DNA from: Acutalibacteraceae bacterium
GTDB lineage: Bacteria; Bacillota; Clostridia; Oscillospirales; Acutalibacteraceae
Direction: 5' to 3'
DNA length: 47,124 nucleotides
NCBI GenBank assembly: GCA_045543675.1
Contig: JAZPXM010000152.1
Location: 1 to 47,124 of the forward strand
The translations under genes and the position numbers were made by a program. Shown in pieces: positions 30,993 through 45,712 of the stretch; position 1 is the stretch's first letter; each line of letters begins with the position of its first letter. The notes under the pieces are model-generated. The model saw only the letters and a program-made list of their open reading frames with translations. It was not told the origin of the DNA and did no database searches.

Positions 30993-31054
30993 GAAAAGCG
31001 CAGCAAAGCGTGATACAATCTGCTCAATAAGTAAGAATTTAGAGGGGTGTTTGT

Positions 31055-31568: not shown

Positions 31569-31984
31569 ATGGCACCGCTTTGCAATAAGCATCCAAAATA
31601 TGCTTATCGGAGAGAGAGGCGCGGTTACCAACCAGTAAAATTACAAAACCCCTGGTCAAACAGGGCTTTGCTGACCACATTTATCGCAATGTAAACGCAT
31701 TTTTGAAAAAACACATTCACCGCTTTTACGGAATACAACCTACTGTTTTGCCGCTGACGGTGAGCATCGTATTTGCTATCGTTGTTATATCGAACAACAT
31801 CTTTGCAGTATTATTTTGTTCCATTATAGCATTATTCTCTGCCGGAGCAACTAAAAAACCTACTGTAATTATATACATATCCTATGAATTAATAATCAAC
31901 CCCTTTGCGCGGGAAGGTGCATCGGTCAAGGGTTTCGTGATATTTTCATTTGAAGAACTTTTTCTTTTTCTGAATCGACTAAGC

Positions 31985-32024
31985 AAAAAGAGAAGATACA
32001 CAAATGTTGTGTATCTTCTCTTTT
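31985..32024 (-). terminator. Terminator of the ten-gene operon (bidirectional hairpin)
   Basis: gagaagatacaca / tgtgtatcttctc 13-bp perfect stem with a 5-nt loop, flanked by an A-run and a T-run. It lies 27 nt beyond the last stop codon at 32051. Confidence 0.85.
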
Positions 32025-32050
32025 CCATTTACCCAAAAGGTGTCTGCGGT

Positions 32051-32332
32051 TTATTTCTTCTCCACCGTATATCCCAGCGCAATGATCAGTTTTATGGTTT
32101 CCAATGCCGTGTTGCGGTCGTACGCTTTTTCGGTTTCGGTTAAATCGGCATACGGCACAAGGCACGGGGTGGTCTTTTTTTCATCATCCCGTTTTTCGCC
32201 GTAGGTCCAACCGTCTGCAATACGCCCCGCCGCCCACACTTCATGGACATTCTCGGCTATTTTTTCGGTAAGTTCTATCAATCCGTCGTCCAACAAAACG
32301 GCAGATGTATCTAAAGGTTTTGGTATATACAT
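32051..32332 (-). CDS. Stand-alone RyR (ryanodine-receptor repeat) domain protein, 93 aa
   Basis: IAENVHEVWAAGRIADGWTYGEKRDDEKKTTPCLVPYADLTETEKAYDRNTALETIK matches the bacterial RyR-domain pattern (H..W....GW.YG...D...K..P.LVPY..L.E.EK..DR). The RBS is AGGAGA. Confidence 0.8.
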   Translation of the reverse strand: MYIPKPLDTSAVLLDDGLIELTEKIAENVHEVWAAGRIADGWTYGEKRDDEKKTTPCLVPYADLTETEKAYDRNTALETIKLIIALGYTVEKK

Positions 32333-32341: not shown

Positions 32342-34369
32342 CTAATCTTTTTTCTTCGAAAATTGTGACAAGTCCTGCCACCGCTGCAGGTCAGGATGTA
32401 CAAGCGCACGGTCGGCGCGCCGTTCTCCGTAGCAATACCCGTTCACACGCATATACGCATTCCACCGCATATGCTCGGTCTTTTTACGGCGACACGCTTC
32501 ACAGTAACATATTGTTTTGTCGGTACCGGTACACGGTCCTACCGTGCCAAACGTGCTTTCCAACATCTCTTTATGCACCGCTTTGGCTACCGACGACTGT
32601 CGGTAATACTCGAAGTTCAAGAAAGACGTAATGCCGTTTATCACATTTTGTCTGCCTTCCACACCGTCCGCCTGTATCCAGCGAATGTGGTCGTCAAGCG
32701 CCTGCGCTTCGCGTTTTTGTTCGTTCTCTATCACAGTATACGCAAAATGAGACGATAAATTACCGATAAACTGCACGTGGTACGGTGTACCTTTGTAATT
32801 AACAAGGAACGAATCTTCCTTTTCCCGCGGCTCTACGTTAAGATTTTCCGCCTTTTTATCGTCGTACACCACCGCGTAAATACGGGGTGCATCTGCCGCA
32901 CCTGTTTTCTGCATCACTTCGCAAGCGGCATTATCCACCCCTTGCAAACGGTCAAACAGTTTCCGCAACATAATAGAAACGCGGATATTTTTATCGTCGT
33001 CGCCAAGTGCCACAAACGCCATTGTGGTACGGCGCAGGCGTGCCGCGGATGCGGGATTTTCAAACAAGCGATCAAACGCCGCCGTAAAACAATCCACGTT
33101 CTTATAAAAACGCAGGTCGTAGGTTGCTTCGCCGTCTATGCGGCAAGGATTTTTTGACAGAATTTCGGGACATTCCTGCCGCAATACTTCTTCGATATCC
33201 CGCCGTCCCGTTTTGTCTATGCCGCTGTCCACCACGTTGATTTCCAGCCGATAGCCGTCCATCTGGCAAAACCACAGCGCCGTTTTTAAAATCTGCTTGC
33301 CGTATTCGCCCATACCCACAATGAGCAGTGAAATCACCTTATCATTACACAACTCAAAAACGTGGGATTTACAAAACGTATCCAACACAAGCGAATATAC
33401 GCTGTCCATACGCAAAATGCGGAAACCGCCGTCAAAAGAGAGTCCGCTTGCCTTTGCCCCGTTTTGCAAAAATGCCTGCACATCAAATGCGGGGTCTAAC
33501 AATTTTTCGCGGGTGGCAGGCGGTATCAGCAGGTCGCCTTTTTGTATGGCATCAATAACGTGCGCACCGCCGTCGCTGTTTGCGTATACGTACACGGTGG
33601 TGTTGGCGCGCTTTTTATGCGCGGCGGTCAAGCGAATGGCCTGTTCCAGATTTTCCGACTCATCGTCCCCTATCACAAACAACGCCGCTTTGCGGTTTTT
33701 AGCAAGGCGCAGATGGGTAATATCCTGCTTTAAACAGATACCCCCGACATCGCTTTCCTGTGCTTCACACATTAACGCAAACCCGTCTTCACCGTTTTCC
33801 AAAAACACGTCGGTAAATACGATGGTGGCTTTTTTGCCTTTGGCTTGTCGGATACTGCGTGCTAACGCCACCGACTGCGGATTGAGTTTGGATAACACGT
33901 AAAGCGGCTTTTTGCCGGAAACCGCGTACTGTATACGCGCCGTTACGCTACGGAAAAAAGATAATACGGCAACCGCTGTCAAAACGGGTGCTAACAGCAG
34001 GGTCAGCACCGCCGCGGCGGTATACACCTGCTGTAGCCAATCGGTTGTAACGTTGCTAAGCCCGCTACGTATCATTTCCACGTCGCCGTCCAGCGCAAAC
34101 ACACGCGCCGCTTCCACAAAAGACCAGACAACCGTCGTGAAACGACGGTGGCACAGATTATCTACGTCGTTGACGGTATGTATGATCGGCAGATATTGCA
34201 CCGCAACCGCCACATACGCGCCTGCCGTAAAAACCTGCCACGCGGTAAACAGCCGTTTCGCGCGGGAGACGCGGCGGTGATATACCGCCGCAATCACCAC
34301 CGCTATCGCTATCAACGCCAAAGAAGCCACGCCGAAAACTGCCGCGCGGGCATCTATGGAAGAAAACAT
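32342..34369 (-). CDS. Membrane protein with cytoplasmic Rossmann (TrkA-N/RCK-like) region and C-terminal RyR-like domain, 675 aa
   Basis: N-terminal hydrophobic helices span about aa 9-30, 43-60 and 115-138. A dinucleotide-binding-type loop LLIVGMGEYGKQ is at aa 348-359. The C-terminus EHMRWNAYMRVNGYCYGERRADRALVHPDLQRWQDLSQFSKKKD resembles a RyR domain. No K+ filter (GYG) was seen. Confidence 0.65.
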   Translation of the reverse strand: MFSSIDARAAVFGVASLALIAIAVVIAAVYHRRVSRAKRLFTAWQVFTAGAYVAVAVQYLPIIHTVNDVDNLCHRRFTTVVWSFVEAARVFALDGDVEMIRSGLSNVTTDWLQQVYTAAAVLTLLLAPVLTAVAVLSFFRSVTARIQYAVSGKKPLYVLSKLNPQSVALARSIRQAKGKKATIVFTDVFLENGEDGFALMCEAQESDVGGICLKQDITHLRLAKNRKAALFVIGDDESENLEQAIRLTAAHKKRANTTVYVYANSDGGAHVIDAIQKGDLLIPPATREKLLDPAFDVQAFLQNGAKASGLSFDGGFRILRMDSVYSLVLDTFCKSHVFELCNDKVISLLIVGMGEYGKQILKTALWFCQMDGYRLEINVVDSGIDKTGRRDIEEVLRQECPEILSKNPCRIDGEATYDLRFYKNVDCFTAAFDRLFENPASAARLRRTTMAFVALGDDDKNIRVSIMLRKLFDRLQGVDNAACEVMQKTGAADAPRIYAVVYDDKKAENLNVEPREKEDSFLVNYKGTPYHVQFIGNLSSHFAYTVIENEQKREAQALDDHIRWIQADGVEGRQNVINGITSFLNFEYYRQSSVAKAVHKEMLESTFGTVGPCTGTDKTICYCEACRRKKTEHMRWNAYMRVNGYCYGERRADRALVHPDLQRWQDLSQFSKKKD

Positions 34370-34391: not shown

Positions 34392-37300
34392 TTAGTCTTT
34401 GAGCACCGCTTCGATTTCGTCGCCCGTCATATGGTTTTTCACCATTAACGTGCCGACAAGCGCATCAATTTTATGCTTATTTTCCGCAATCAGCGCAACC
34501 GCTTTTTGCATCTGCTCTTCTAAGATACGATTCACCGCGGCGTGCACTTGTTCCGCCATACCACCGTTGGGGTCAATCACAGCCAACCCGAAGTCTTTGT
34601 CCATACCGTAACTGCACAAAATCGCCTGCGCCGTACGGGTGGCACTCACAAGGTCGCTCGCAGCGCCCGTGGAAAGCCCGTCTTGTTCCCCGTAATATAC
34701 CAATTCTGCCGCGCGACCGCCCAAAGACGTGCGAATTCTCGCAAGCAGGTCCTCTTTGGAGGATAACGGTTTTTTCTCGGTATCGCCGTGTTGCATATAC
34801 CCACCGTGGTCGCCGCGTGCCACAACGGTGAGATAGGACGGGGTTTCACCGTAGTGCCAATACAGAAAAGCGTGACCCGCCTCATGCCGTGCAACGCGTT
34901 CTAAGGTGGAAATATCCCATTCTTTGCGTTCGCCGCCGTTAAAGGTTTCAAACGCTTCGTCAAAAATCTCGTCGGTAACCTTGCCGTCGCCGTCGCGGAT
35001 CGCCATACGCAAGGACAGTTCCAAAATAGATTCTAACAGTGCCAAACTCATACCCGTAGAACGAATGGCGATGCTGTCGTATTTCGCATCGGTCAATCGG
35101 TATGCAGGGTTGGCCGCCGTACGTTCTTTCAAATACCGCGTGCGTTCGTCGCGGTTGGGCAAATCCACAAAGATACGGCGGTCAAAACGACGCATCAATG
35201 CGGCATCCAAACTCTTTTTGCTGCCCGGTTCCACGTCGAAATTGGTTGCCGCCAACACGAACACGGGTTTGGTCGTATCCTTACGGAAACCGTCCATTTC
35301 GGTAAGCAAGGCGGTCAAGGTCGCTTCTACTTCGCGGGAACCGCCGCTCTCGCCGCCGGTACGTTCCTGCGCGATAGCATCAATTTCGTCGATAAACAGG
35401 ATACTGGGGGCATATTTACGCGCCGTACGGAACAAATCCCGTATCGCGTCGCCGCCCTGTCCGATATACTGTTTGCGGAACTGACTGCCCACCGCAGAGA
35501 TAAAGGTCACGTCCGATTCGCTTGCCATCGCTTTGGCGAGCATAGTTTTACCCGTACCGGGCGGGCCGTACAAAATAACACCTTTCGGGGGTTGTGCACC
35601 CGCAAATTTTTTGGGGTCTTTTAAGTATTTGATGAAATATTGTAATTCTTTTTTTGCGTCTTCAGCGCCTATTACTTCGCTGAACTTCACGTTGGGTTTG
35701 GTGATGTTGCTCAGCACGTTTTTCGCGTCTTCGGCATCCATTGCAACGGTCAAACGGAAGTCAAACAAATGGATACACGCCACGCCTGCCGCCGTGTCTA
35801 CCGTCTGCGACGTGCTAAAGCCCGCCACCTTATTGGCTTTTGCCAATTTGAGCATACTGTTTTGCCGATGGATGCTTTCGCAAATATCCGCAATGCGTGC
35901 AGAGAATGCTTGTGCGCCGTCACAGAAATTCACTTCACCGCGCACGCCCATCCGCGCAAACGAAACTTTTTCTTCCGCCGTATATTCCCTTGCCCCGCGT
36001 GCCATATACACGGGGGTGGTGTTATAGCGGTTATACAGATGTTGTAAAAACGTACGTCCGTCGGATTCTACGTCTTCAATGTTCAGATACCCGTCGGCAT
36101 TTTCTTTTACGCCGCACAGAATATCCACCACCGCAAACGCAATATCCTTTTCACGCAACGCATCGGCGGCTTTAGCCAAATCGTTCGTCACAATAAAATT
36201 GCAGGTATCGTTTTCGGTGCAATACGTCGCGAAAGCATCGTCTGCAAAAATGAGTGCCGTCGGCTTCTCCGCAGGCAGGAACAAATGCCGTACCTGCGCA
36301 TTATCCGCAGGCAATTTCACGCCGATCTTTACGGTTTTCACCGCGCTGACGTTGTCAGCACTCATCAAGCGATACAACTCGTGGATCTCCGCGTTAAAGA
36401 ACGCTTCCGCTCTGCCGCGTACGGTACGTGCATCCGCCGCGCCGCCTTCTGCAAACAGCAACGCCGCGTAAACGGCATCGTCAATGTCAATGGTGATATT
36501 GAATTTCTTTTCAAAGTTATCTGCGTGGCGGCGCATTTCACGCTTGGCAATGCCGACAAGGTTCTGCGCGGTGATGTGGTTAAACATCACCACGTTGCCC
36601 GACGCGAAACGGGAACAGATCGCCGCAGGGAAATACGGCTCGCCGGTTCGCTGGTCAATATCGTTTTGCAACGCACGCAAGATCACCTTTTTGGACAGAC
36701 CCGAAAAATCGGTGATGTCGCTGTCTTCATACAACTGCCGACCTGCGTTGGTGGTGAAGATCAAAATGGCGTCTTTAAAATCAATTTCTTCGTCCGTTTT
36801 GGCATCGCGCAAACGACCGGCATCCAACAACTGCAAAAACAGCGTGATGATGTTATAATGTGCCTTTTCAATTTCGTCAAACAGCAACACACAACGGGGA
36901 TTTTTCTTCACAAAACCCGTGACGTTACCCGCTTTCGCGTTGCGGTATACGTCGTCCGAGCCGACAAATTCCACCGTCGCTTCATGACCCGAATATTCGC
37001 TCATATCAAACCGCTGGAACGGTCTGCCCAGCAGTTGTGCCACCTGCTCCGCCAAAAACGTCTTACCCACGCCGGGAGGGCCTGCGAACAAGAAGGTGGC
37101 AGGACGGGTGCGTTTGTCGTCGGTCATACGCAACATCTCCGACTGGAAAAAGCCGCTGACAAAGGTGCCCACCGCGTTATCCTGACCGAATACCACTTTA
37201 GACAGGCTTGCTTGTATCTCTTTCGCCTGTGCGGTCAACGCCGCAATATCGTCGGCGGTTTCGGTGCTGCCTGCAGACGCCGTCTGTGCGGCAGGTGCCG

Positions 37301-37814
37301 CCGCTTGTGCCGGCTGTGCAGGCGCATTTTGTTGGGTCAGATTGCGGAACGACGCCATAATATCATCAGGAAGCACGCCGCTGTCTGCCAATTTAGTCGT
37401 AACGGGAATGACACCGTCTTTTATGCACACTTTGAGCAACCCGTCCATCACCGCATTCGGGCGGAGAATAATATCTTCCAATACCGCGGCAACGGTCAGT
37501 TCTTTTGCTTGTTTTTCCGCGCGGTCTTTGGCTTCCAGCAGTATTTTCTGCATAAACAAGCCGTCAAAATACGCCGCGGGCGCTGTACTGTTTATGTGGG
37601 ACATCATCACCTTTTTCAGTTTGCCCGTATCCAACTGTGCCATAGCGATAACGGCGGATATTTCCTGCAAATTTGCACCTTCCACCGTATATACGTGGTC
37701 TAAAAGGTCGACCACCGCCACCAAAAAGCGATGCGCCGTTAACGGCTTATTTTCGCCGCCAACGGTTTTGGCATACGCCAAAACCTGCTCTAATATCGTC
37801 TGTTTTGTACTCAT
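34392..37814 (-). CDS. Chimeric soluble AAA+ protease: Clp_N-like N-domain, ClpA/B D2-type AAA+, receiver-like insert, FtsH-type AAA+, M41 zinc peptidase (1140 aa)
   Basis: The Clp D2-type block is VFGQDNAV...FLFAGPPGVGKTFLAE...FDMSEY...LLFDEIEKAH...LLQLLDAGRLRD...ILIFTTNAG. The FtsH-type block is GVILYGPPGTGKTMLAKA...ILFIDEIDAI...ATNFD...LMRRFDRRIFVDLP. The M41 motifs are HEAGHAF (aa 977-983) and GAASDLVSATRTAQ. No TM helix is present. Confidence 0.85.
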   Translation of the reverse strand: MSTKQTILEQVLAYAKTVGGENKPLTAHRFLVAVVDLLDHVYTVEGANLQEISAVIAMAQLDTGKLKKVMMSHINSTAPAAYFDGLFMQKILLEAKDRAEKQAKELTVAAVLEDIILRPNAVMDGLLKVCIKDGVIPVTTKLADSGVLPDDIMASFRNLTQQNAPAQPAQAAAPAAQTASAGSTETADDIAALTAQAKEIQASLSKVVFGQDNAVGTFVSGFFQSEMLRMTDDKRTRPATFLFAGPPGVGKTFLAEQVAQLLGRPFQRFDMSEYSGHEATVEFVGSDDVYRNAKAGNVTGFVKKNPRCVLLFDEIEKAHYNIITLFLQLLDAGRLRDAKTDEEIDFKDAILIFTTNAGRQLYEDSDITDFSGLSKKVILRALQNDIDQRTGEPYFPAAICSRFASGNVVMFNHITAQNLVGIAKREMRRHADNFEKKFNITIDIDDAVYAALLFAEGGAADARTVRGRAEAFFNAEIHELYRLMSADNVSAVKTVKIGVKLPADNAQVRHLFLPAEKPTALIFADDAFATYCTENDTCNFIVTNDLAKAADALREKDIAFAVVDILCGVKENADGYLNIEDVESDGRTFLQHLYNRYNTTPVYMARGAREYTAEEKVSFARMGVRGEVNFCDGAQAFSARIADICESIHRQNSMLKLAKANKVAGFSTSQTVDTAAGVACIHLFDFRLTVAMDAEDAKNVLSNITKPNVKFSEVIGAEDAKKELQYFIKYLKDPKKFAGAQPPKGVILYGPPGTGKTMLAKAMASESDVTFISAVGSQFRKQYIGQGGDAIRDLFRTARKYAPSILFIDEIDAIAQERTGGESGGSREVEATLTALLTEMDGFRKDTTKPVFVLAATNFDVEPGSKKSLDAALMRRFDRRIFVDLPNRDERTRYLKERTAANPAYRLTDAKYDSIAIRSTGMSLALLESILELSLRMAIRDGDGKVTDEIFDEAFETFNGGERKEWDISTLERVARHEAGHAFLYWHYGETPSYLTVVARGDHGGYMQHGDTEKKPLSSKEDLLARIRTSLGGRAAELVYYGEQDGLSTGAASDLVSATRTAQAILCSYGMDKDFGLAVIDPNGGMAEQVHAAVNRILEEQMQKAVALIAENKHKIDALVGTLMVKNHMTGDEIEAVLKD

Positions 37815-38800: not shown

Positions 38801-40045
38801 TTATCCCCCTAATTTCCGCAACATTTCCGTGAAGCGTTGCTCACACAGATCGTCGTTCTTTATTTTGATTACCGTAATACCCATTTCGGCGGCGCGATTG
38901 ACAATCGCTTCGCCGCTTTCCCGCATTTCATCCAAGCGGGTGGCAACCAGCACTTTTTTAGCGTACTGTCCGCCAAACCGTTCGGCAACGGTAGACAGTT
39001 TATACAGTTCGTCCGATTTAAAGTTGCGGCCGTTTTTGCAGGAAATGAAAATCGGGGTCAGGTCTTTCATCAACATAACGTCCATTTCATTGTTCACTTC
39101 CTGCTTGTCCGCTTCCAGTTTGCCGTCCCAGTCGATGGTGACCCCCGTCATCACGTCGTCAAACAGCGGCTTGCCGTCTTGGTCGGTAAGGTTTCTCGCC
39201 GTTTGGGTCACAAACAACTCCAGCACCCTGCCCGCATTGGTAAGACACCGCTTTACCTGCTCGTTTTTGTAGGTAAAGGCAATGCCTGCGGTAGAAAAGG
39301 TCAGGTTTTGTATCAAATCATACGTTTCCAGTTCTTTGAAGAAACTGCCCGAGAAAAACGCGGGGTACCCTCTTTGTAACAGTACGTCTTTGACCTGCTC
39401 GGGTTCAATAAACACCGACAATGCTGTTTTATCCTGCACACAGCAGGTGTGAAAGCCGTCTAACGCGTGCACCGCATCGTTCCATTGTGCGTAATTCTTC
39501 TTGCAGATGCGCCACATACGGTCAAGGTCGGCACAAAATGCCTGATTAAAATCCCAACGGTAGGTGGTGTTTTCTTTTTCTGCTTCAAAGATCACCCGTC
39601 CGCCATACGCTTTCACGTTTTCTTCAATGGTCAAAGATGCCTGTTTTACGGCGAGTATCTGCCCGTCCGCATCGCAGTCATATAACCTGCCGTTGCGGAT
39701 ATTAAAGCGATGCAGTTGTACTTTATCACGGTGGGCACAAAACACAGCGCCTACTGCCACCAGATACAAATCTTCGCCACCGGTCAGATCAAATGTACAT
39801 TCACCGTATTTGGCAATGATCGTTTCCAGCTTTTTGATAATATCTTGCAGATCGTTGCGGTTTACCGATTCATACGAAAAGGTCACCTGCAGTTGATGCG
39901 CCGCCGCGATCTCTTCGTACCGTACTTTGGCTTTTGCCATACGTTTGTGGTTATCACCCACCAGCACCACCCGTTCGGGTGCACACAGCAAGGCGCTGAC
40001 GATATTTTCCACCGCATTGGTGTCAAAAAATTCTACAACCGTCAT
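38801..40045 (-). CDS. Card1/Can2-like protein: N-terminal CARF-type Rossmann domain plus C-terminal DUF1887/PD-(D/E)xK nuclease-fold domain
   Basis: The N-terminus ENIVSALLCAPERVVLVG...FDLTGGEDLYLVAVG resembles the CARF core of Card1 (..NITGGTK..). The C-terminus NEMDVMLMKDLTPIFISCKNG...ELYKL resembles the DUF1887 nuclease core. This rests on my recollection of the family pattern, not on a search. Confidence 0.65.
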   Translation of the reverse strand: MTVVEFFDTNAVENIVSALLCAPERVVLVGDNHKRMAKAKVRYEEIAAAHQLQVTFSYESVNRNDLQDIIKKLETIIAKYGECTFDLTGGEDLYLVAVGAVFCAHRDKVQLHRFNIRNGRLYDCDADGQILAVKQASLTIEENVKAYGGRVIFEAEKENTTYRWDFNQAFCADLDRMWRICKKNYAQWNDAVHALDGFHTCCVQDKTALSVFIEPEQVKDVLLQRGYPAFFSGSFFKELETYDLIQNLTFSTAGIAFTYKNEQVKRCLTNAGRVLELFVTQTARNLTDQDGKPLFDDVMTGVTIDWDGKLEADKQEVNNEMDVMLMKDLTPIFISCKNGRNFKSDELYKLSTVAERFGGQYAKKVLVATRLDEMRESGEAIVNRAAEMGITVIKIKNDDLCEQRFTEMLRKLGG

Positions 40046-40343: not shown

Positions 40344-40922
40344 TCACTCCGTAATCACATGGTCAATAATGCCGTAGCGCAATGCTTCGTCCGCAAACAT
40401 CCAGTTGTTGCGGTCGGTATCCCGCTCGATTTCTGCGGGAGTATGCCCCGTATTCGCGGCGAGAATGGTATTAAACCGCTCTTTCAGGCGCTGTAAATGG
40501 CGGGATTCCACCACAATATCGGTCGCCTGTCCCGCAGCGGCACTCATCACTTGATGAATCATGATCTGGCTGTTTTCCTGCGCATACCGTTTGCCTTTGG
40601 TGCCTGCCGCCAGCAAAAACGCGCCCATACTCGCCGCCTGTCCCACACAAATGGTGGAAACGTCACATTTGAGTTTTTTGACGGTATCATAAATACCCAA
40701 CCCCGCCGATACACTGCCGCCGGGAGAGTTGATGTACAGCGAAATATCCTTGTGCGGGTCCAACGACTCCAGATACAGCAGTTGTGCAATCACCGAACAC
40801 GCCAAGTCGTCGTTCACTTCGTTAAATAACAGTACGATACGGTCTTTTAACAGACGGGAAAACAGGTCGTACCCATGCTCCACACCGCCGTCTCTTTCGT
40901 AAAAATTCGGATTCAGTATCAT
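40344..40922 (-). CDS. clpP: ATP-dependent Clp protease proteolytic subunit paralogue
   Basis: Full-length ClpP-like sequence: YDLFSRLLKDRIVLL, LYINSPGGSV, VSTICVGQAASMGAFLLAAG (Ser), IMIHQ (His), ERDTDRNNWM (Asp). Confidence 0.9.
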   Translation of the reverse strand: MILNPNFYERDGGVEHGYDLFSRLLKDRIVLLFNEVNDDLACSVIAQLLYLESLDPHKDISLYINSPGGSVSAGLGIYDTVKKLKCDVSTICVGQAASMGAFLLAAGTKGKRYAQENSQIMIHQVMSAAAGQATDIVVESRHLQRLKERFNTILAANTGHTPAEIERDTDRNNWMFADEALRYGIIDHVITE

Positions 40923-42547
40923 TTTTTACCGTCCTTTCTTCCGTACAAATTTTCATACGTCTGCGCCGCTTTTTCCTGCAGTTTGGTGTCTTGCGCTGTT
41001 GTTTTCTTCTTAGGTGCAGACTTCTTTTTCGGTTTTTGGGGTTTTGCTTGCGGTAACGTTATTTCCATTTCGTGCGTTGCCGTAAACGGGAACGGTTTTT
41101 TACCCGCCAAAATGTCGTTTAACAGCGTATCCACCGAGAACTGCGCCACCTGCGGCATACGGAATGCCCTCTGCTTGGGTGCTGTATACCCTTTAAACGC
41201 TTCGTACATATCGATATCCGCCATTTCGGTGATAATGGGATACTGCCGCGCGTGCATGATCAGCGTCTCGCCCTTTTGCTTGTCAAACCGCTGTAATTCC
41301 GACACCGAAATCATCGCCCGACGGCGTCCGTCAGCGGTATATATCTCCCCGCACAAGGCGCTGATCTCCTGCAACAACGACAATTCCTTAGACGTTAAAA
41401 ATACCCAGTTATCGCAGTTACCTTTAATGGTGTCGGCATCTTCGCCGTACTTACCTTTCAGTTGGTGCATACTCTGTGCCACCAGGAAATACCGCATATT
41501 ACGGCTTCTCGCCGCCGAGATCATCGCCGGCATATCCGGCACTTTGGGGATATTACAAAACTCGTCCAACACGAAGTTGACACGCACAGGCAAGCGGAAA
41601 TTCTTTTCTTTTTGCGCTTCGGAGATCAACACTTCATACGCCTGCTTAATAAAGGTGGTAACAAGAAAATGGTAGGTGGTTTTTTCGTCGGGCACAATAA
41701 TGTACACCGCCGTTTTCTCTCTGCCGAACCGCCGCATATCCACTGTGTTACCGCTTAACATTTTGGTAAGATTGGGCTGGGTGTTGAAGATGCGCACCAT
41801 ACCGTACAGCACCGCAAAAATACTGCGGCGGGTATTTTCCGCACCTGCCAACACACCTTTGTAATTCATTCCCGCAATGGTCTCGTCACTCATTCTTTCG
41901 GCAAGTTTTGTGAGCACCTTCTCACTCGCCGTAGAACACAAGCCGGACAGCGAGCCGACGTTCATTTCTTTCGCCGTGCCGCATTCCGCCATCAACAGCA
42001 GATTGGCAAGTGCATACGCGCTTGCCATTTCCGGCCAGAACACGTCTTTGGTGTTCGCCTTTTGCGGTTCGGCGATGGTGTTGACAAAATCGTTGAGCAT
42101 CGAGATACCTTGCTCTTTGTTTTCCGAATGGTACATTTCATACGGCAAAGCAAGCGGATTCCACATATCACCGTGACCGATGTCACGGAAGTTGAGTACG
42201 ACGGTTTTATACCCTTTGGTTTTTACAAAACCCGCGGTTTTTGCGTACAGTTCCCCTTTCGGGTCGGTGACCACAAACGATTCACCCGCACCTGCAAACA
42301 ACCCGATAAACGGCATACAGAACAAACGGGTCTTCTTGGACCCCGTCGCGCCGAAAATCAGCGTGTGGGTATCCGCACCGTCCACGTACGCCTCTTTGCC
42401 GTCGGACAGCAACGGCAAACCTGCCACGGGATAGGTGTCGGCAAAAAGGTCTACGTAGGTGCCCGCCCGTTTCATCTCTTCTACGGTCGACCAACGCGTT
42501 TCTTGGTTGCCGACCATATATCTGTCATATCGATGGGTGCTTCCCAT
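40919..42547 (-). CDS. Soluble VirD4/TraG-like (type IV coupling protein family) P-loop ATPase, no N-terminal TM anchor
   Basis: HTLIFGATGSKKTRLFCMP (Walker A, aa 66-73), FVVTDPKGELY, VNFVLDEFCNIPKVPDMPAMISAARSRNMRYFLVAQSMHQL and NCDNWVFL blocks are typical of T4CP/TraG-D_C. The N-terminus is hydrophilic. Confidence 0.75.
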   Translation of the reverse strand: MGSTHRYDRYMVGNQETRWSTVEEMKRAGTYVDLFADTYPVAGLPLLSDGKEAYVDGADTHTLIFGATGSKKTRLFCMPFIGLFAGAGESFVVTDPKGELYAKTAGFVKTKGYKTVVLNFRDIGHGDMWNPLALPYEMYHSENKEQGISMLNDFVNTIAEPQKANTKDVFWPEMASAYALANLLLMAECGTAKEMNVGSLSGLCSTASEKVLTKLAERMSDETIAGMNYKGVLAGAENTRRSIFAVLYGMVRIFNTQPNLTKMLSGNTVDMRRFGREKTAVYIIVPDEKTTYHFLVTTFIKQAYEVLISEAQKEKNFRLPVRVNFVLDEFCNIPKVPDMPAMISAARSRNMRYFLVAQSMHQLKGKYGEDADTIKGNCDNWVFLTSKELSLLQEISALCGEIYTADGRRRAMISVSELQRFDKQKGETLIMHARQYPIITEMADIDMYEAFKGYTAPKQRAFRMPQVAQFSVDTLLNDILAGKKPFPFTATHEMEITLPQAKPQKPKKKSAPKKKTTAQDTKLQEKAAQTYENLYGRKDGKK

Positions 42548-43416
42548 TACACAGCACCACCTTTCACAAGCCCTATGGTGTTCACTTTTTCCAAATTGGC
42601 AACGGTGCGTTCCACGTACGCGCTGTCGGGTGCAAACGCCGCTAACGTATCTGCGTGTAATTCACGGGTTGCCAACTTGCCGCTCGAAAATACCGTGTAC
42701 GCAATTTCCTGACACAGCAACCCCAGCGATTTATACCCGTCAAAATATTTGTTTTTGCGCATCTTATCCACCGTTTTGCCAAGCAATTCCCGTCCGTCTG
42801 TCGCAAGGGTCAAGCCGTAAGCGGCAAGATTTTTTTCGATATAATCGGTCAGGTCCTGCGTGTTGGGCAGTTTCAGTTCCACCCGCTCTATACGCAAAAA
42901 CATAGACAAAAACGCTTCTAAATTATGTAACTTCTGTTTGTCCGCACAACTGACAGACAGAATAATAAACCACGTATCTTTATGCGCGGCAAGGTATTCC
43001 ATAAAATGCGCGAAATACCGCTCTTCGTAGTGGTCTACCCATTCGTCCACGTCGATACGGATAATCCCTTTAAACTCGCTGCGGAAACCCGCCGCATTTT
43101 TTACCGCTTCCATCAACCGTTGCAATTCGCTGAACGGCGCGGCAGGCGGCGTATACCCCAGCACAAACTCGAAGAATTTCACGTCCCCGTAAAACTCCAT
43201 CAAATTACCCTTAGATTCCAGATATTCCGCAATCAGTTCCAGAAAGAACGTTTTGCCGACACCTGATTTTGCCACCCACAACATATCGGGCAACAAAATG
43301 GGCGCATGCACGGGTTGATCCCGCATATTTTCGGACAGCGTTTCCCATTTTCTGATCAACGGGCGTAACTGTTCCGCTTCTTTTTGTCGCATCACCTTAT
43401 CAAAACACGTTTCCAT
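42547..43416 (-). CDS. P-loop/AAA-like ATPase of unknown function
   Basis: Walker A is WVAKSGVGKTFF, and a possible Walker B is IIRIDVDEW. The ATG at 43416 (METCFDKV) follows AGGGGG. The stop overlaps the VirD4-like start (TAATG). Confidence 0.5.
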   Translation of the reverse strand: METCFDKVMRQKEAEQLRPLIRKWETLSENMRDQPVHAPILLPDMLWVAKSGVGKTFFLELIAEYLESKGNLMEFYGDVKFFEFVLGYTPPAAPFSELQRLMEAVKNAAGFRSEFKGIIRIDVDEWVDHYEERYFAHFMEYLAAHKDTWFIILSVSCADKQKLHNLEAFLSMFLRIERVELKLPNTQDLTDYIEKNLAAYGLTLATDGRELLGKTVDKMRKNKYFDGYKSLGLLCQEIAYTVFSSGKLATRELHADTLAAFAPDSAYVERTVANLEKVNTIGLVKGGAV

Positions 43417-43441
43417 AGCGATACCCCCTATACGTAATTTT

Positions 43442-43470
43442 ATCATAATACAAAAAGTCACAAAATGCAA
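43442..43470 (-). promoter_or_regulatory. Candidate promoter of the ten-gene operon
   Basis: The minus strand reads TTGCAT (43470-43465), a 17-nt spacer, then TATGAT (43447-43442), about 26 nt upstream of the first ATG. Confidence 0.55.
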
Positions 43471-43517
43471 CATTTTATTCTGTTTTGAAAGAAAATGTTC
43501 TTTTTTTATATAAAGTC

Positions 43518-43546
43518 TTTCAAAACCGCCTGCGCTGTGCTATAAT
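43518..43546 (+). promoter_or_regulatory. Candidate divergent promoter (extended -10)
   Basis: TGcTATAAT at 43538-43546 with a weak -35 (tttcaa) 17 nt upstream. Confidence 0.4.
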
Positions 43547-43574
43547 AAAGCGGTATAAAAAGGGGGTAACCGCT

Positions 43575-44819
43575 ATGATAAGCCCGTATATTTTGCGGTA
43601 CGCGACTACCGAAGCTACAGCAGAGCGTATCCGGTATTTTTTAAGAGACTGTTTTCATATTTGTCAGCGCGAACTGCCCGAAGAACAACGCAGTGTGTTA
43701 ATGGCGTGTGACTTGATATGGGATTTTGAAAATAACACGTGTTTCCCGCTGTTTATTCGCCGCGGGTACGGGTTTTGTGACCTTGTCACCGACCCGCTCG
43801 CCCCCGCGCAGAAAAACCTGTTTGAAAACGCAAATTTTCTCACGGATGTGGAAGACCGTCGATATCTTTTGCGGTTAGAGCGGCCCCTCAATCCCCTGAT
43901 GCGTGAAAAAGAAGAAACGCTGAGCAAAAGCGTGTTGCGGTCTTTGCGCGGTTGGTATCAACAGCACGATTTGACGCAAAGCGCCGCCTGTGCGGCAATA
44001 CAAATCGAACAATGCGGCTTTTTCGGGGTTGTCGACCCGCGCGGGAACGTATTGGTCCCGCCGCTGTATAAAAGCATCGTTCCCTTTTCCGTACGGTTGC
44101 AGGAAATTGCTTTGTTTGTGTGTTATCGCGGCGACAAGTTTACCAACACGGTGGACGTATACGATATCAACGGCAACAAGATATACGAAAACATCGGCGG
44201 ATTATATTTACATACCGAAGAAGTAAAATACGCTTTTTCCGGTGAAGACGGCAACGCGCCCGGCGCACGGGTTGCGGAAACATTGCGGGTGGTACAGTAC
44301 ACACAACCGCCGCTTTCAGACAAAGCGCCGCCGTATAAAGAGTATATTCGAAAGGTCAGCAACTTACGCCTTTTGCCCGTTGCAGAGAAGGACGACGGTC
44401 CCCGACGGCTGGCGCGGTTTTCCGACGCTTTGTCGTATGGTCGCAACATCGAAACCATAGATCTGCGGGATATTCACGACGTGTTGTACCCGCTCGCCGA
44501 AAAAATGGGCGCTTACCACGGGGAAACCGCCGCAGAAATTATGCTCAGCATTCCCCATTGGAACTTTTTCCGCAAGGGACATACCCGTATGGACGCGGTC
44601 GTTCCCGACCTGCCGCTTCATTTGTTATTGGATATGCCCGAAAATATACGCACGTTTTTTGAAAATATCGGCTTAAAAACCGTTACTGACGTTGCCAATA
44701 CCGACTTAACAGACTTTTGCAACGGTGACCGATCTTTGGAATTCGCGGTGTTTTTATTTCAGGCGCAGATACAATACACCTTGGCACATCCCGCAGAAGA
44801 TGATGAACAGGAGACATAA
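43575..44819 (+). CDS. Hypothetical protein with WG-repeat-like segments
   Basis: The ATG at 43575 follows AAGGGGG. GFFGVVDPRGNVLVPPLYKSIVPF and VDVYDINGNKIYENI resemble WG/KWG beta-repeats. The C-terminus NIRTFFENIGLKTVTDVANTDLTDF is HhH-like. Confidence 0.4.
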   Translation: MISPYILRYATTEATAERIRYFLRDCFHICQRELPEEQRSVLMACDLIWDFENNTCFPLFIRRGYGFCDLVTDPLAPAQKNLFENANFLTDVEDRRYLLRLERPLNPLMREKEETLSKSVLRSLRGWYQQHDLTQSAACAAIQIEQCGFFGVVDPRGNVLVPPLYKSIVPFSVRLQEIALFVCYRGDKFTNTVDVYDINGNKIYENIGGLYLHTEEVKYAFSGEDGNAPGARVAETLRVVQYTQPPLSDKAPPYKEYIRKVSNLRLLPVAEKDDGPRRLARFSDALSYGRNIETIDLRDIHDVLYPLAEKMGAYHGETAAEIMLSIPHWNFFRKGHTRMDAVVPDLPLHLLLDMPENIRTFFENIGLKTVTDVANTDLTDFCNGDRSLEFAVFLFQAQIQYTLAHPAEDDEQET

Positions 44820-44821
44820 AT

Positions 44822-45712
44822 ATGCAATACATATCCGTGCAAATTTCCTTGGTGGCGTTATTACCCACTCTGCTGTTATGCTGGTACATCTATGAAAAAG
44901 ACCGCGTGGAAAAAGAACCTAAAGGATTACTCTCCTTGCTGTTTTTGGTGGGCGGCATCGGCTTTATCCCCGCGTATTTCGCTGAACGCGGCATAGCAGG
45001 GCTGATAGACGGGTGGTTTGCGTCCCGCCTATCCTTTTCCGCAGAAGGCGCGTTGCTGTTCGATAACGCAGGTGTCGCTTTCGCACACACCGCACTTTTC
45101 GCTTTTTGCGGCGTGGCGCTGGTAGAAAACAGTATAAAGTGGCTTCTTTTGGTACTCATTACCCGTAAAAGTCGCCACTTTAACTGCTTGTTTGACGGGC
45201 TGATCTACGCGTCCTTTGTGTCGCTGGGGTTTGCGGCGTTTGAAAGCGTTGCGTACGCATGGCAAAACGGGTGGGACACTTTATGGTTGCGCCTTGCCAC
45301 CGCCATTCCCTGCCACCTGCTTATTGGCGTGTTGATGGGATACGGTTACACCTTGTGGCACACGTTTGACAGCGCACAAAAAGCCGAACGCCGTCTCGTA
45401 CAGGACGGAACGGTGTCCGCCGCCAACATCCGCGGCGCAGGCGGATTTTTGACCGCCGGTTTTGTCGTGCCGTTGCTTACCCAAGGACTATATGTAACCG
45501 TAGGGTCTTTCTACTCCACCCTTGTCAGTACCCTGTTTTATGTAGCGGTAGGCATCTTGTTTGTATTGTGTTTCGTAGGTATCCATTTGTTGTCGGATAA
45601 GGATAACCCCACCGAGAAAACATCGCTTATCCTGCTTTTGCGCAAGCATCCCGATACGGATATTACCCTGCTCCGTGAAGCGATAAACGCGGAGGTGTCG
45701 TATGGAAAATAA
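44822..45712 (+). CDS. PrsW-family intramembrane protease
   Basis: Polytopic, with YIYEKDRVEKEP, VENSIKW, SLGFAAFES and PCHLLIG motifs characteristic of PrsW. There is a 2-nt gap from the upstream gene. Confidence 0.75.
   Translation: MQYISVQISLVALLPTLLLCWYIYEKDRVEKEPKGLLSLLFLVGGIGFIPAYFAERGIAGLIDGWFASRLSFSAEGALLFDNAGVAFAHTALFAFCGVALVENSIKWLLLVLITRKSRHFNCLFDGLIYASFVSLGFAAFESVAYAWQNGWDTLWLRLATAIPCHLLIGVLMGYGYTLWHTFDSAQKAERRLVQDGTVSAANIRGAGGFLTAGFVVPLLTQGLYVTVGSFYSTLVSTLFYVAVGILFVLCFVGIHLLSDKDNPTEKTSLILLLRKHPDTDITLLREAINAEVSYGK

Follow-up and report, generated by a model that had tools for sequence, protein, structure and literature searches.

FtsH (MEROPS M41; TIGR01241), to which mitochondrial AFG3L2 and YME1 also belong, is a universal housekeeping protease whose established role is the turnover of membrane proteins. 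An FtsH-derived machine with additional AAA+ content is found in plastids, where the Ycf2-FtsHi motor forms membrane-embedded, mostly proteolytically inactive hetero-oligomers, and two defence systems, IetAS and Dodola, couple an AAA+ ATPase to proteolysis. FtsH-type ternary conflict systems contain tandem AAA+ modules, the second of them an active FtsH-type module, together with variable effectors, and have a proposed role in conflict (Kaur et al. 2020, PMC7159879). In these systems, which occur in actinobacteria, deltaproteobacteria and planctomycetes, both modules are FtsH-type and the first is inactive, no M41 peptidase is described, and a MoxR-vWA pair is always present (PMC7159879).

Here we analyse a 47,124-nucleotide stretch of DNA from an Acutalibacteraceae bacterium (contig JAZPXM010000152.1; the window), which holds a real, intact gene that joins two AAA+ modules of different origin and an M41 peptidase in one soluble chain (Table 1). 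Unlike in the ternary systems, module 1 is Clp-type and, judging from its motifs, apparently active, an M41 peptidase is present, and no MoxR or vWA neighbour of the protease gene was found. The Ycf2-FtsHi motor is among the Foldseek matches, although the protein described here is bacterial, soluble and made of a single chain whose active site is intact.

Table 1. Features of the protease gene and of the surrounding island (positions in the window; aa numbering of the protease)
Feature	Position	Strand	Evidence
Whole gene: 1140-aa soluble tandem AAA+/M41 metalloprotease	34392..37814	minus	ORF, Pfam and NCBIfam matches, 45-sequence alignment, AF2 model
N-domain, aa 1-134: seven helices, two similar halves, weakly Clp_N-like	37413..37814	minus	AF2 secondary structure and profile searches
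Linker, aa 135-186: disordered, Ala/Thr/Pro/Gln-rich	37257..37412	minus	pLDDT <50 for aa 135-185; composition
AAA+ module 1, aa 187-490: Clp/Hsp100 D2 type	36345..37256	minus	AAA_2 5.8e-35; PDB matches; invariant residues
Middle region, aa 491-700: family-specific alpha/beta domain	35715..36344	minus	AF2 secondary structure; invariant columns
AAA+ module 2, aa 701-962: FtsH/classical clade	34929..35714	minus	AAA 4.7e-51; FtsH_fam 1.7e-103; PDB; Foldseek
M41 zinc peptidase, aa 963-1140: HEAGH 977-981, third ligand D1054	34392..34928	minus	Peptidase_M41 1.1e-26; invariant residues
Stand-alone RyR-domain protein, 93 aa	32051..32332	minus	Pfam RyR 1.7e-36
Partner, 675 aa: N-terminal TM helices, tandem RCK/KTN Rossmann domains, C-terminal RyR-like domain	32342..34369	minus	Adjacency, AF2, Foldseek
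YbjN-like (T3SS-chaperone-like) small protein, 158 aa	37826..38302	minus	Own HMM iteration
YbjN-like small protein, 160 aa	38315..38797	minus	Pfam YbjN 0.0012; clustering
CARF + PD-(D/E)xK nuclease (Card1/Can2-like)	38801..40045	minus	Pfam Card1_endonuc 2.6e-10; PADLOC CARF4--CARF_PDDEXK 1.3e-34
Xre-type HTH protein, 96 aa	40057..40347	minus	HTH_3 4.6e-10
ClpP paralogue, 192 aa	40344..40922	minus	CLP_protease 2.7e-72; triad read from sequence
VirD4-like coupling-protein ATPase (CD1115 family)	40919..42547	minus	T4SS-DNA_transf 1.7e-40; NF045973 3.4e-83
P-loop protein, first gene of minus-strand operon	42547..43473	minus	Motifs AKSGVGKT and RIDVDEW; weak holA match
Divergent three-gene unit of the same island	43485..46898	plus	Pfam; same three genes in L083 and L085

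Domain architecture of the protease

The ORF is unbroken and starts with an ATG preceded by GGAGATAGGGAA; its strand, minus, was absent from the earlier sequence-only reading. That reading had proposed a chimera of two AAA+ types and M41 within 1140 aa, which is borne out by Pfam (AAA_2 at aa 239-368, AAA at aa 746-884 and Peptidase_M41 at aa 972-1137) and by NCBIfam (ClpA D2 at aa 194-452, 1.1e-50; FtsH_fam at aa 698-1134). The motifs it quoted are all present, in module 1 (GPPGVGKT 245-252, FDMSEY 269-274, LLFDEIE 310-316, LQLLDAGRLRD 327-337 and IFTTNAG 352-358) and in module 2 and M41 (ILFIDEID 805-812, ATNFD 856-860, RRFDRR 875-880, HEAGHAF 977-983 and GAASDL 1050-1055), although the second Walker A sits at 750-757 and not at 749-756.

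As a D2-type AAA_2 domain (ClpA profile positions 445-689), module 1 resembles the D2 modules of Clp/Hsp100 proteins (ClpE, ClpC, ClpA and ClpB/Hsp104) in its FDMSEY, LLQ.LD.G.L.D and TTN.G blocks and its pore-loop tyrosine, Y290. ClpE was the best PDB match (1.9e-30), followed by Hsp104, ClpC, ClpA and ClpB D2. Walker A (245-252) and Walker B (D313/E314) are accompanied by a flexible, conserved DFS loop at 364-374. Unlike Clp/Hsp100 proteins, however, the protease has no D1 ring, M-domain or conserved ClpP-docking tripeptide, and its own peptidase is fused to it.

The C-terminal 440 aa are 33-38% identical to the cytosolic part of FtsH in an end-to-end alignment. Both have an AAA+ module of the classical kind, a pore loop of the aromatic-hydrophobic-Gly pattern (here YIG, 783-785), the SRH arginines (here 875-879), HEXXH and a third-ligand Asp. 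Module 2, with its Walker A at 750-757 and Walker B at D809/E810, matches FtsH at 1.8e-75 in the PDB and 7e-28 in Foldseek. The FtsH_fam match is limited to profile positions 148-598, so the TM and periplasmic part is absent, and a 19-residue Kyte-Doolittle scan of the whole chain found no TM-like segment, in agreement with the earlier claim that the FtsH helices are missing. The protease also differs from FtsH in its score (347 bits against a 600-bit cut-off) and in the extra Clp-type AAA+ ring, N-domain and 215-aa middle domain that stand in front.

What had been read as a Clp_N-like N-domain resembles Clp_N weakly: the family profile finds ClpA N-domains as top PDB matches (E 0.005) and ClpC and ClpC2 N-domains next (0.13-0.16), and Pfam Clp_N matches 2 of 21 family members (E 0.0075). 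The Ala/Gln/Pro-rich linker that was reported to follow is indeed there and is disordered. In the AF2 model the middle region (~215 aa) has a flavodoxin/REC-like topology followed by a long helix and a beta-hairpin; its matches to response regulators are weak and non-significant, and its LNxED loop (aa 577-581) is invariant in the alignment.

Both Walker A motifs, D313/E314 and D809/E810 are invariant in all 45 aligned homologues, as are Y290, G785/G787, R875/R876/R879, H977/E978/H981 and D1054, and from these residues both AAA+ modules appear to be active. The AF2 monomer model has a mean pLDDT of 73.8 and a pTM of 0.44, so the mutual placement of the rings is not predicted. Taken as a whole, the analysis makes it very probable that the protein is an autonomous ATP-dependent two-ring metalloprotease.

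A patchily distributed Clostridial family

We collected more than 120 full-length homologues (1122-1250 aa) from NCBI, JGI, ENA and Logan, with members in 35 species-level genomes; every one of the best 120 matches is full-length. The sequence-only reading had allowed that two genes might have been fused by an assembly or frameshift error. The chance of this is negligible: it is ruled out by more than 120 full-length proteins, drawn from four independent sources, and by 35 genome assemblies, counterparts 98% and 85% identical exist in other samples, the interdomain linker regions are conserved, invariant middle-domain residues included, and no point in favour of an artefact was found.

The distribution of the family is patchy and Clostridial. 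The middle domain forms ~130 clusters at 50% identity, mostly from Clostridia and almost all with the tandem Clp-FtsH architecture. In contrast to FtsH, the gene is accessory, and members elsewhere occupy unrelated gene contexts. The N-domain is variable: in homologues, kinases or RNase H hybrid-binding domains replace or extend it, and both Cauli_VI and RNase H fusions are seen. The family is an accessory module that moves horizontally, its N-terminus and neighbours swapped between lineages; the swaps include Ser/Thr kinases with WD40, TPR, FHA or TIR domains, RNase H hybrid-binding domains and RyR/RCK membrane proteins.

No curated family for the tandem protease was found, its matches to NCBIfam models all stay below the cut-offs, and a literature search returned no paper describing the family, which databases name only 'AAA family ATPase'; the family is uncharacterised. 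Searches of phage and plasmid collections did not find the family, a result that is neutral with regard to defence and gives no sign of mobility by those routes.

The gene island and its RyR-domain proteins

The protease gene belongs to an island of 12-13 genes that is kept as a block in relatives (66-85% identity) with differing flanks, and that adjoins a tRNA-Leu gene, past a drop in G+C. The first gene of the minus-strand operon probably encodes ~289 aa from an internal start, as in the 289-aa gene calls of the close relatives L083 and L085. The divergent unit encodes a protein of ~412-444 aa, a PrsW-family intramembrane protease and a transglutaminase-like protein. A link between the CARF nuclease and the protease is uncertain, the nuclease being conserved beside it only in L083 and L085. 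Directly upstream of the protease, across an 11-nt gap, lies the 158-aa YbjN-like gene, a paralogue of the 160-aa gene; by our own HMM iteration one to three such genes adjoin the protease in 10 loci, and the homologue in L019, the locus of a 39%-identical family member, matches Pfam YbjN at 2.2e-9. The sequence-only reading had overlooked both YbjN-like genes, the downstream TM-RCK-RyR protein, the stand-alone RyR protein and the 215-aa middle domain.

The TM-RCK-RyR partner adjoins protease orthologues in eight loci (L001, L002, L004, L032 and L083-L086), an adjacency observed down to 32% partner identity. Its AF2 model (pLDDT 89) has an RCK-channel-like fold, the body matching the tandem-RCK gating rings of GsuK, Slo1, TrkA and CASTOR in Foldseek, although no K+ selectivity-filter motif is visible, unlike in RCK-gated channels. 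In L083-L085, too, the partner gene is followed by the 93-aa RyR gene, which is found close by in L001 and L002. PF02026-type domains, as in phage RyDEP and RyR Tad, form the partner C-terminus and the 93-aa protein. In the partner the residues H633, W636, H658 and K674-D675 line up as an invariant H-3-W-22-H-17-D pattern, the spacing of the cADPR-binding residues in RyDEP and RyR Tad (PMC13232231; 10.64898/2026.06.04.730250), and ADP-ribose-derived nucleotides are the predicted ligands of both the partner and the 93-aa protein; the latter differs from RyDEP in having a Thr in place of the phosphate-binding His. In contrast to those of the phages, the partner genes belong to cells and encode membrane-anchored products fused to RCK domains. 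RyDEP, RyR Tad and RCK-gated channels are comparators for the partner genes and not for the protease.

The pairing raises the possibility of a dedicated, non-immune protease, recruited to the membrane by a channel that replaces the missing FtsH TM anchor and is itself matured or turned over for ion or metabolite (NAD/ADPR) homeostasis. Tight adjacency across 32-85% identity, the RCK-channel fold, the known part of FtsH in membrane-protein turnover and a CorA-like membrane protein in the same downstream slot in L019 would all fit. We nevertheless find this improbable, since the partner is missing from most protease loci and its short forms also occur without the protease, the partner family comprises just 54 clusters at 90% identity against 120 best protease matches that are all full-length, and the kinase and RNase H fusions are left unexplained.

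The RyR proteins might instead mark the island as mobile counter-defence cargo, in which they, like phage RyDEP and RyR Tad, would sponge or cleave host cADPR immune signals while the protease degrades host defence proteins; every RyR-domain protein yet characterised from a prokaryotic virus is an anti-Thoeris factor (PMC13232231; 10.64898/2026.06.04.730250). The island does sit beside a tRNA gene, moves as a block and carries a VirD4-like ATPase, but, that ATPase apart, the island as found in the window, L083 and L085 has neither T4SS genes nor an integrase, a relaxase or any phage gene. Many family members have ordinary chromosomal contexts, and the absence from phage and plasmid collections also counts against this reading. 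The TIR genes beside the pair in L001 (a TIR-kinase and two TIR-STAND genes, with an FHA protein) and beside a short-form partner paralogue in L087 (TIR-LRR, with PrsW) better fit a self-contained signalling system, and we regard counter-defence as quite unlikely. No nucleotide-signal maker (TIR, cyclase or Cas10 gene) was found within the window, which weighs against a signal-controlled conflict or immunity system there.

Kinases and other conflict-type neighbours

Kinases occur in 12 of 35 protease loci, with three direct fusions, and are concentrated next to the protease, where they account for 8 of the 63 genes that flank it directly (position +/-1), against at most one beyond position 4. 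They match the PD-T4-6 and mad6 defence kinases (best 1.7e-55). Further conflict-type associations are the TIR-kinase, FHA and two TIR-STAND genes that surround the pair in L001, the Cauli_VI and RNase H fusions, and the CorA-like membrane protein downstream in L019. PADLOC has no model for the tandem protease; module 2 is matched at 2.2e-42 by its models for IetA, an FtsH/Cdc48-like AAA+ protein that is paired with a protease, and module 1 at 7.9e-29 by DolB, which is ClpB-like. The concept of an AAA+ ATPase coupled to proteolysis is common to both systems and the protease, but these matches span single AAA+ modules, neither an IetS subtilase nor a DolA partner was found by PADLOC in the neighbourhood, and the protease carries its M41 peptidase in cis; together with those to PD-T4-6, the matches reflect generic AAA+ or kinase homology. 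The protease has no universal neighbour, and in about one locus out of three no shared partner could be recognised, so it may act alone.

The Clp_N-like N-domain, the closeness of module 1 to the D2 of ClpE, Hsp104, ClpC and ClpB, and weaker NCBIfam matches to the disaggregases ClpG and ClpK are what a general quality-control enzyme might show, and several loci have housekeeping neighbours only. Such an enzyme would be the one-polypeptide equivalent of the ClpG/ClpK and FtsH pairs of heat-resistance islands, its disaggregase-like Hsp100 ring and FtsH extracting and degrading aggregated or misfolded cytosolic proteins. This is unlikely, however, given the patchy distribution and swapped N-termini, associations with kinase, RyR, TIR and RNase H that are unexpected for proteostasis genes, and the lack of the D1 ring or M-domain that disaggregases use. 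No CtsR or CIRCE heat-shock operator was found near the island, which also contains no sHSP, DnaK or other stress genes. The genes around family members point to a role in signalling or immunity and not to housekeeping.

The neighbouring ClpP

The sequence-only reading placed a dedicated ClpP two genes from the protease and hinted that they work together, while calling ClpP docking uncertain. Four genes in fact intervene (158 aa, 160 aa, CARF nuclease and HTH protein). ClpP docking by the Clp-type ring, so that two peptidases would serve one unfoldase, draws on an active-looking paralogue in the same operon (intact Ser/His/Asp triad; score below the TIGR00493 equivalog cut-off) that recurs, with a VirD4-like gene, beside the L019 protease, and on the flexible loop at the ClpA/C/E docking position, which reads S-G-L in the window protein. 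The loop is conserved as D-[FLY]-S-x-[VLI]-[ST]-[RK]-K-V, but its first docking position is an invariant Ser and not I/L/V, and its glycine (Gly372) occurs in only 24 of 45 homologues; there is thus no conserved (I/L/V)-G-(F/L). Moreover, ClpP adjoins the family in two lineages only, about 33 of 35 loci being without it, and its gene overlaps the VirD4-like gene (by 4 nt) rather than the protease gene. The protease already has its own peptidase, and in a linear D2-FtsH-M41 stack the ClpP-side face of ring 1 would be expected to lie against ring 2. Docking is therefore not supported and seems very unlikely, and the conserved partner genes are more informative about the protease than ClpP is.

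Proposed mechanism and role

By analogy with Hsp100 and FtsH hexamers, we infer that six subunits would place a Clp/Hsp100 D2-type ring atop an FtsH ring, itself atop an M41 zinc-peptidase chamber; 'bespoke substrate-processing machine', as the sequence-only reading put it, is fair wording. Substrates, which the two upstream YbjN-like chaperone-fold proteins might deliver, would be captured by the helical N-domain, unfolded, drawn through one pore after the other (Y290, then Y783-I-G) and cleaved at HEAGH/D1054, with ClpP not needed for degradation. In the window the partners of the protease would be the channel-like TM-RCK-RyR protein encoded downstream and the small RyR protein, and the protease may either set the level or activation of this membrane effector or destroy presumed invader proteins upon a putative signal.

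Because the family is a horizontally moving accessory module with swapped N-termini and neighbours, we tentatively propose that the protease serves as a conflict/immunity module, a role that we hold to be slightly short of an even call. For the locus as a whole, the best explanation, with about an even chance of being right, is that this two-tier soluble AAA+ protease may be the proteolytic arm of a signal-controlled conflict/immunity system.

A Clp D2-type ATPase and a complete cytosolic FtsH in one chain

The protease gene is a single unbroken ORF of 1140 codons that starts with ATG; a ribosome-binding stretch, GGAGATAGGGAA, precedes the start codon, and the stop of the upstream gene is 11 nt away. 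It lies on the minus strand, a correction to the sequence-only reading. That reading had described the product as a chimera of a Clp-type AAA+ module, an FtsH-type AAA+ module and an M41 peptidase, and Pfam and NCBIfam matches confirm all three. The motifs that it quoted are likewise all present, with the second Walker A at residues 750-757 rather than 749-756. None of the NCBIfam models attains its own cut-off with this protein, and the FtsH profile scores 347.5 against a cut-off of 600, with its membrane and periplasmic part unmatched. The reported absence of the FtsH transmembrane helices was borne out by a hydropathy scan, which detected no TM-like or hydrophobic segment, and by an FtsH match that begins at profile position 148.

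When an AlphaFold2 model built on a 45-sequence alignment (mean pLDDT 73.8; monomer pTM 0.44) was combined with a conservation map, six parts emerged. The two halves of the N-domain each show an 'A..(x)n..LT.E..L' pattern reminiscent of Clp_N repeats. Compared with the PDB, a family profile of this domain matched the ClpA N-domain best (E 0.005), followed by ClpC N (0.13), ClpC2 (0.16) and Hsp104 N (0.33), and Pfam Clp_N matches two of 21 family members, the window protein not among them. The two-repeat, Clp_N-like N-domain proposed earlier may therefore be present; the evidence for it is weak, though consistent.

Coordinates of the protease, its parts and the surrounding features (aa, residues of the protease)
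Feature	Position	Strand	Description
N-domain	aa 1-134		seven helices, two similar halves (AlphaFold2)
Linker	aa 135-186		disordered, Ala/Thr/Pro/Gln
AAA+ module 1	aa 187-490		Hsp100 D2 type
ClpA D2 half	aa 194-452		profile positions 445-689, NCBIfam 1.1e-50
AAA_2	aa 239-368		Pfam 5.8e-35
DFS loop	aa 364-377; window ~36684-36725	-	D369, S371, K376 and V377 invariant
Middle region	aa 491-700		no database assignment
FtsH (TIGR01241)	aa 698-1134		profile positions 148-598, NCBIfam 1.7e-103
AAA+ module 2	aa 701-962		FtsH / classical clade
AAA	aa 746-884		Pfam 4.7e-51
M41 peptidase	aa 963-1140		HEAGH and D1054
Peptidase_M41	aa 972-1137		Pfam 1.1e-26
Surface protein	7106-13348	-	2080 aa; N-terminal VWA, seven Spy0128/FctA isopeptide domains, DUF7601, SpaA-like
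tRNA-Leu(CAG)	30696-30782		
tRNA and low-G+C stretch	30696-32050		two long perfect hairpins (30784-30825, 31533-31562), two small, unknown ORFs
RyR protein	32051-32332	-	93 aa; PF02026, 1.7e-36
RCK-RyR partner	32342-34369	-	675 aa
Protease	34392-37814	-	1140 aa
CARF + PD-(D/E)xK nuclease	38801-40045	-	stand-alone, Card1/Can2-like; PADLOC 1.3e-34; Xre HTH gene precedes
ClpP	40344-40922	-	Ser, His and Asp motifs present
VirD4-like (CD1115-family) ATPase + ClpP	40344-42547	-	also L019:393-2261 and L083:5258-7469
Divergent unit	43485-46898	+	unknown 412-444-aa protein, PrsW-family intramembrane protease, transglutaminase-like protein
PrsW gene in L087	L087:10942-13748		unrelated locus without the protease; PrsW adjoins a short-form partner paralogue and a TIR-LRR gene

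Both AAA+ modules retain the residues expected of working ATPases. In module 1 the Walker A motif, D313/E314 and pore-loop residue Y290 are invariant across the 45-sequence alignment, and the nearest solved structures are ClpE (1.9e-30), Hsp104, ClpC, ClpA and the D2 ring of ClpB. Module 2 has an invariant GPPGTGKT (750-757), D809/E810, YIG pore loop (783-785) and SRH arginines R875/R876/R879, and the M41 residues H977, E978, H981 and D1054 do not vary either. Over 440 residues at its C-terminus the protein aligns with, and superposes on, the entire cytosolic part of FtsH (PDB E 1.8e-75; Foldseek 7e-28), and a Foldseek search with the whole model returned FtsH-type matches only. Given these invariant motifs, and the alignment and superposition with FtsH, both ATPase sites and the zinc site look catalytically competent.

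The region between the two ATPases is modeled as an alpha/beta domain with five beta-alpha units followed by a long helix and a beta-hairpin, and contains an invariant LNxED loop (577-581). Its topology resembles that of a flavodoxin or a receiver, with non-significant results in profile searches and hhalign. A receiver domain at residues 491-630, suggested by the model topology and by response-regulator matches at E 0.1-1.2, was rejected: hhalign against a real response regulator gave a probability of 0.1, and the acidic pocket is unconserved save for one Asp.

Relation to known AAA+ proteases

The protein shares with FtsH a classical-clade AAA+ domain with Walker A/B motifs, pore loop and SRH arginines, and a C-terminal M41 domain with HEXXH and a downstream Asp ligand. 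It differs in having neither of the two N-terminal TM helices that flank the periplasmic domain, and in carrying an extra Clp D2-type module where FtsH has a single AAA+ ring per subunit. With class I Clp/Hsp100 proteins (ClpA/B/C/E) it shares the D2-type AAA_2 domain but not the D1 that precedes it: every alignment to a Clp profile or PDB entry is confined to D2, and Clp D1 regions give a P-loop match of only ~3 bits. Judged from its sequence, the protease would work like FtsH and like a Clp D2 ring. Lacking the anchor and single-ring build of FtsH, and the D1 and conserved ClpP loop of the Clp proteins, it is a strict member of neither family.

Three other systems were compared. IetA models match module 2 only, and none of nine neighbouring proteins matches IetS/S8. 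The DolB model of Dodola matches residues 156-356 only, and no neighbour matches DolA. The ternary systems described by Kaur et al. 2020 combine a tandem FtsH-type AAA+ protein, whose first module is inactive, with a MoxR-vWA pair (PMC7159879), whereas module 1 here is of Clp type with intact Walker A/B motifs; among 120 neighbours of the protease family there is no MoxR or vWA protein. The protease belongs to the AAA+ proteases, yet it is not part of an IetAS, Dodola or MoxR-vWA-FtsH ternary system.

Hsp100 and FtsH enzymes work as hexamers. From this knowledge and the intact motifs in three catalytic centres, the protein is likely to be an autonomous ATP-dependent protease, in whose hexamer the D2-type ring would feed the FtsH ring and then the M41 chamber.

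A ClpP-like docking loop and a neighbouring ClpP

The module 1 loop that follows 'TTNAG', flexible in the AlphaFold2 model, aligns with the ClpP-docking loops of ClpC ('FAGFGG') and ClpE ('VGF'), and has the family consensus D-[FLY]-S-x-[VLI]-[ST]-[RK]-K-V. Only 24 of the 45 sequences have the Gly of the would-be x-G-Phi, and where a hydrophobic residue should come first there is an invariant Ser, so that the (I/L/V)-G-(F/L) tripeptide that defines docking in the ClpP-dependent unfoldases ClpA, ClpC, ClpE and ClpX is not conserved in this family. The invariant Ser371 might be a phosphorylation site, as the family is often linked or fused to Ser/Thr kinases.

The ClpP of the window looks active from its motifs. 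Four genes separate it from the protease, rather than its being two genes away as the sequence-only reading had it, and its gene overlaps that of a VirD4-like ATPase by 4 nt. This ClpP and VirD4-like gene adjoin the protease only in close relatives of the window and in one distant Lachnospiraceae locus (L019); ClpP is absent from about 33 of 35 loci. That the protease couples to ClpP, or that this ClpP is dedicated to it, is thus argued against both by the unconserved tripeptide and by a ClpP near the protease in only two lineages. The recurrence is worth noting, but it links ClpP no less to the VirD4-like ATPase than to the protease. The two genes of this pair, also present in L083 (a locus with a partner homologue), share 4-17 nt, and no T4SS, relaxase or integrase gene lies close by. 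They may form an ATPase-peptidase pair that has gone unrecognised, or belong to the protease's system.

Family and distribution

More than 120 full-length homologues (1122-1250 aa, 51-85% identity) turned up in a protein search; they derive from NCBI, JGI, ENA and Logan assemblies, and the sole name given to them is 'AAA family ATPase'. In a scan of one genome per species, the full architecture was seen in about 35 loci, the majority from Clostridia (Acutalibacteraceae, Oscillospiraceae, Ruminococcus, Lachnospiraceae, Christensenellaceae, Roseburia and Blautia), with one full-architecture match each in Victivallales and Vulcanimicrobiota. Given so many full-length homologues, the two-ring fusion is ancient and conserved, and a frameshift or assembly fusion, one way in which the earlier claim could have failed, is excluded. 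The middle region alone, searched against 1.84 billion representatives, gave 130 clusters, almost all of 1100-1250 aa with the domain at a constant position, along with some forms of 1500-2100 aa; tblastn gave no match to it in phage and plasmid collections. Full-text literature searches yielded no description of a protein combining AAA_2, AAA and M41. The family is uncharacterised, and its spread through gut and rumen Clostridia is moderate.

Tandem AAA+ forms of 934-963 aa are present in Tannerella MAGs (Bacteroidota; loci L031 and L037). They align only to query residues 185-967, appear to be without most of the M41 domain, and have their own conserved upstream gene pair (~200 and ~225 aa).

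The protease gene lies in a transferable island

Most of the window is ordinary chromosome, with genes for RF-1, Sua5, M18 aminopeptidase, a sigma factor and ABC transporters. It also encodes a large surface protein of pilus or adhesin type that is unrelated to the protease. A tRNA-Leu gene followed by a 1.3-kb stretch of low G+C (0.43) marks one edge of the island, the far end of which is at or past the window edge; no att-like direct repeat of the tRNA-Leu end was found within the window. On the minus strand the island reads P-loop protein, VirD4-like ATPase, ClpP, Xre HTH, CARF-PD-(D/E)xK nuclease, two paralogous YbjN-like proteins, protease, partner and small RyR protein, and a divergent unit lies on the plus strand.

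The exact block is kept in relatives whose proteases are 85% and 66% identical, while the flanking genes differ. With three relatives compared, no integrase, relaxase or T4SS gene occurs in the island, which makes it a transferable island rather than a conjugative element; an integrative conjugative element with the VirD4-like and ClpP genes as cargo was rejected on the same grounds. One rival, less likely reading of the protease is that it is counter-defence cargo. Another is general quality control, against which it counts mildly that searches for CtsR boxes and CIRCE found no more than chance would give and nothing close to the island, and that the island has no stress genes. Scans for promoters and terminators did no better than on shuffled sequence and gave no information. 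The window ORFs that were scanned included no recognisable cas10, CRISPR array or cyclase, no enzyme making a nucleotide signal was seen in the window, and the 444-aa and 308-aa island proteins, considered as candidate signal generators, have no PDB sequence match.

Variable partners around a constant core

Genes were called in 35 loci and their neighbours compared. No neighbour is universal. Hanks-type Ser/Thr kinases, fused to WD40, TPR, Sel1, FHA or TIR domains, occur in 12 of the 35 loci; they were counted with a dedicated kinase HMM, single-linkage clustering having merged kinases and protease through fusion proteins. They account for 8 of 63 genes at position +/-1 and fall in frequency with distance. 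No Pfam family is commoner among 120 flanking proteins, and matches of these kinases to the defence kinases PD-T4-6 and mad6 reach 1.7e-55. Three are fused directly to the protease N-terminus (two copies in L024, one in L033). YbjN-like proteins, which have a T3SS-chaperone fold, adjoin the protease in one to three copies in 10 loci, including the two in the window. Elsewhere in the family an RNase H1 hybrid-binding domain (Cauli_VI) is attached to one end or the other, or the chain ends in a full RNase H. Natural fusions to Pkinase (some with WD40), Cauli_VI or RNase H are found in L024, L033, L023, L028 and L038, and L024 has two giant protease copies in tandem (2039 and 2264 aa).

Mix-and-match around a constant enzymatic core is typical of conflict systems and unexpected for a proteostasis gene. 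The neighbours and fusions of this family show this pattern, and they argue further against general quality control.

An RCK-RyR membrane protein is a recurrent partner

Homologues of the 675-aa partner adjoin the protease in L001, L002, L004, L032 and L083-L086, and the pairing persists down to 32% partner and 52% protease identity. In L001 the pair is surrounded by a TIR-kinase, an FHA protein and two TIR-STAND NTPases; in L019 a CorA-like membrane protein occupies the position of the partner. That the protease is a dedicated, non-immune protease of this channel-like partner is a further, less likely reading of its role.

The partner family comprises 54 clusters, all annotated 'hypothetical' and all from Clostridia. 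In its AlphaFold2 model (pLDDT 89, pTM 0.82) an N-terminal TM-helix bundle is followed by two Rossmann (RCK/KTN) domains, whose best structural matches are the channels GsuK, Slo1 and Slo2.2 and the gating rings of TrkA and CASTOR, and by a C-terminal helical domain. In this last domain E632-H633, R635-W636 and H658 are invariant and the terminal D675 nearly so, and the H-3-W-22-H-17-D spacing equals that of RyDEP and RyR Tad. RyDEP uses H75/W78/H100/D117 to bind and cleave 2'/3'cADPR (PMC13232231), and RyR Tad, with H129/W132/H154/K170-D171, sequesters 3'cADPR (10.64898/2026.06.04.730250). From the conserved residues and the fold we predict that the partner is a channel-like membrane protein gated by nucleotides, with ligands derived from NAD or ADPR. 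The separate 93-aa RyR protein is cellular but of a type that in phages was recently shown to bind or cleave cADPR Thoeris signals. It keeps H30, W33 and D72, Thr replaces the phosphate-binding His, and the protein could be a host-side signal off-switch or buffer.

Proposed role and implications

The associations with kinase, TIR, RyR, CARF and RNase H domains provide a context for immunity. Resting on this genomic context, a signal-controlled function of the protease in conflict or immunity is a reasonable possibility, if somewhat short of probable. Substrate selection would fall to the N-terminal region, which varies, and to the YbjN-like proteins. Control, or the controlled effector, would be supplied by kinases in other lineages and by the RyR/RCK membrane protein in that of the window, where the protease could hold the channel in check, switch it on or be brought to the membrane by it. 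A more specific proposal, which we put forward as speculative and rather unlikely, is that the protease serves as executioner, or as regulator, in an unrecognised family of Clostridial immune systems that combine kinase or ADPR-nucleotide sensing, an RCK-RyR channel and two-ring proteolysis. In such a system, diversifying Ser/Thr kinases would sense infection in some lineages; in that of the window, the signal would be ADP-ribose-derived nucleotides, detected by a cellular membrane channel with an RyR domain and RCK gating. The two-ring Clp-FtsH machine would convert the signal into targeted unfolding and proteolysis.

To our knowledge, the well-studied bacterial AAA+ proteases are either one- or two-ring unfoldases that dock a separate peptidase or single-ring enzymes with the peptidase in cis. 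ClpAP, ClpCP, ClpXP and HslUV are of the first kind and Lon and FtsH of the second. A soluble chain with an Hsp100 D2 ring before a complete FtsH would be a third design, and the combination of rings is unprecedented among studied proteases. Such an enzyme would be tractable for asking how two unrelated rings coordinate threading, what the FtsH membrane anchor contributes and how a machine of this kind is targeted.

We know of few defence systems from gut and rumen Clostridia that have been tested experimentally. The locus links the protease to eukaryote-like kinases and to the RyR/cADPR biology of phage anti-Thoeris proteins described in 2026, and is an entry point to the question of whether hosts, besides phages, use RyR domains in NAD-derived immune signalling. 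If the more specific immune proposal is true, the family would represent both a new architectural class of AAA+ protease and the first host-side use of RyR nucleotide binding in bacterial immunity.
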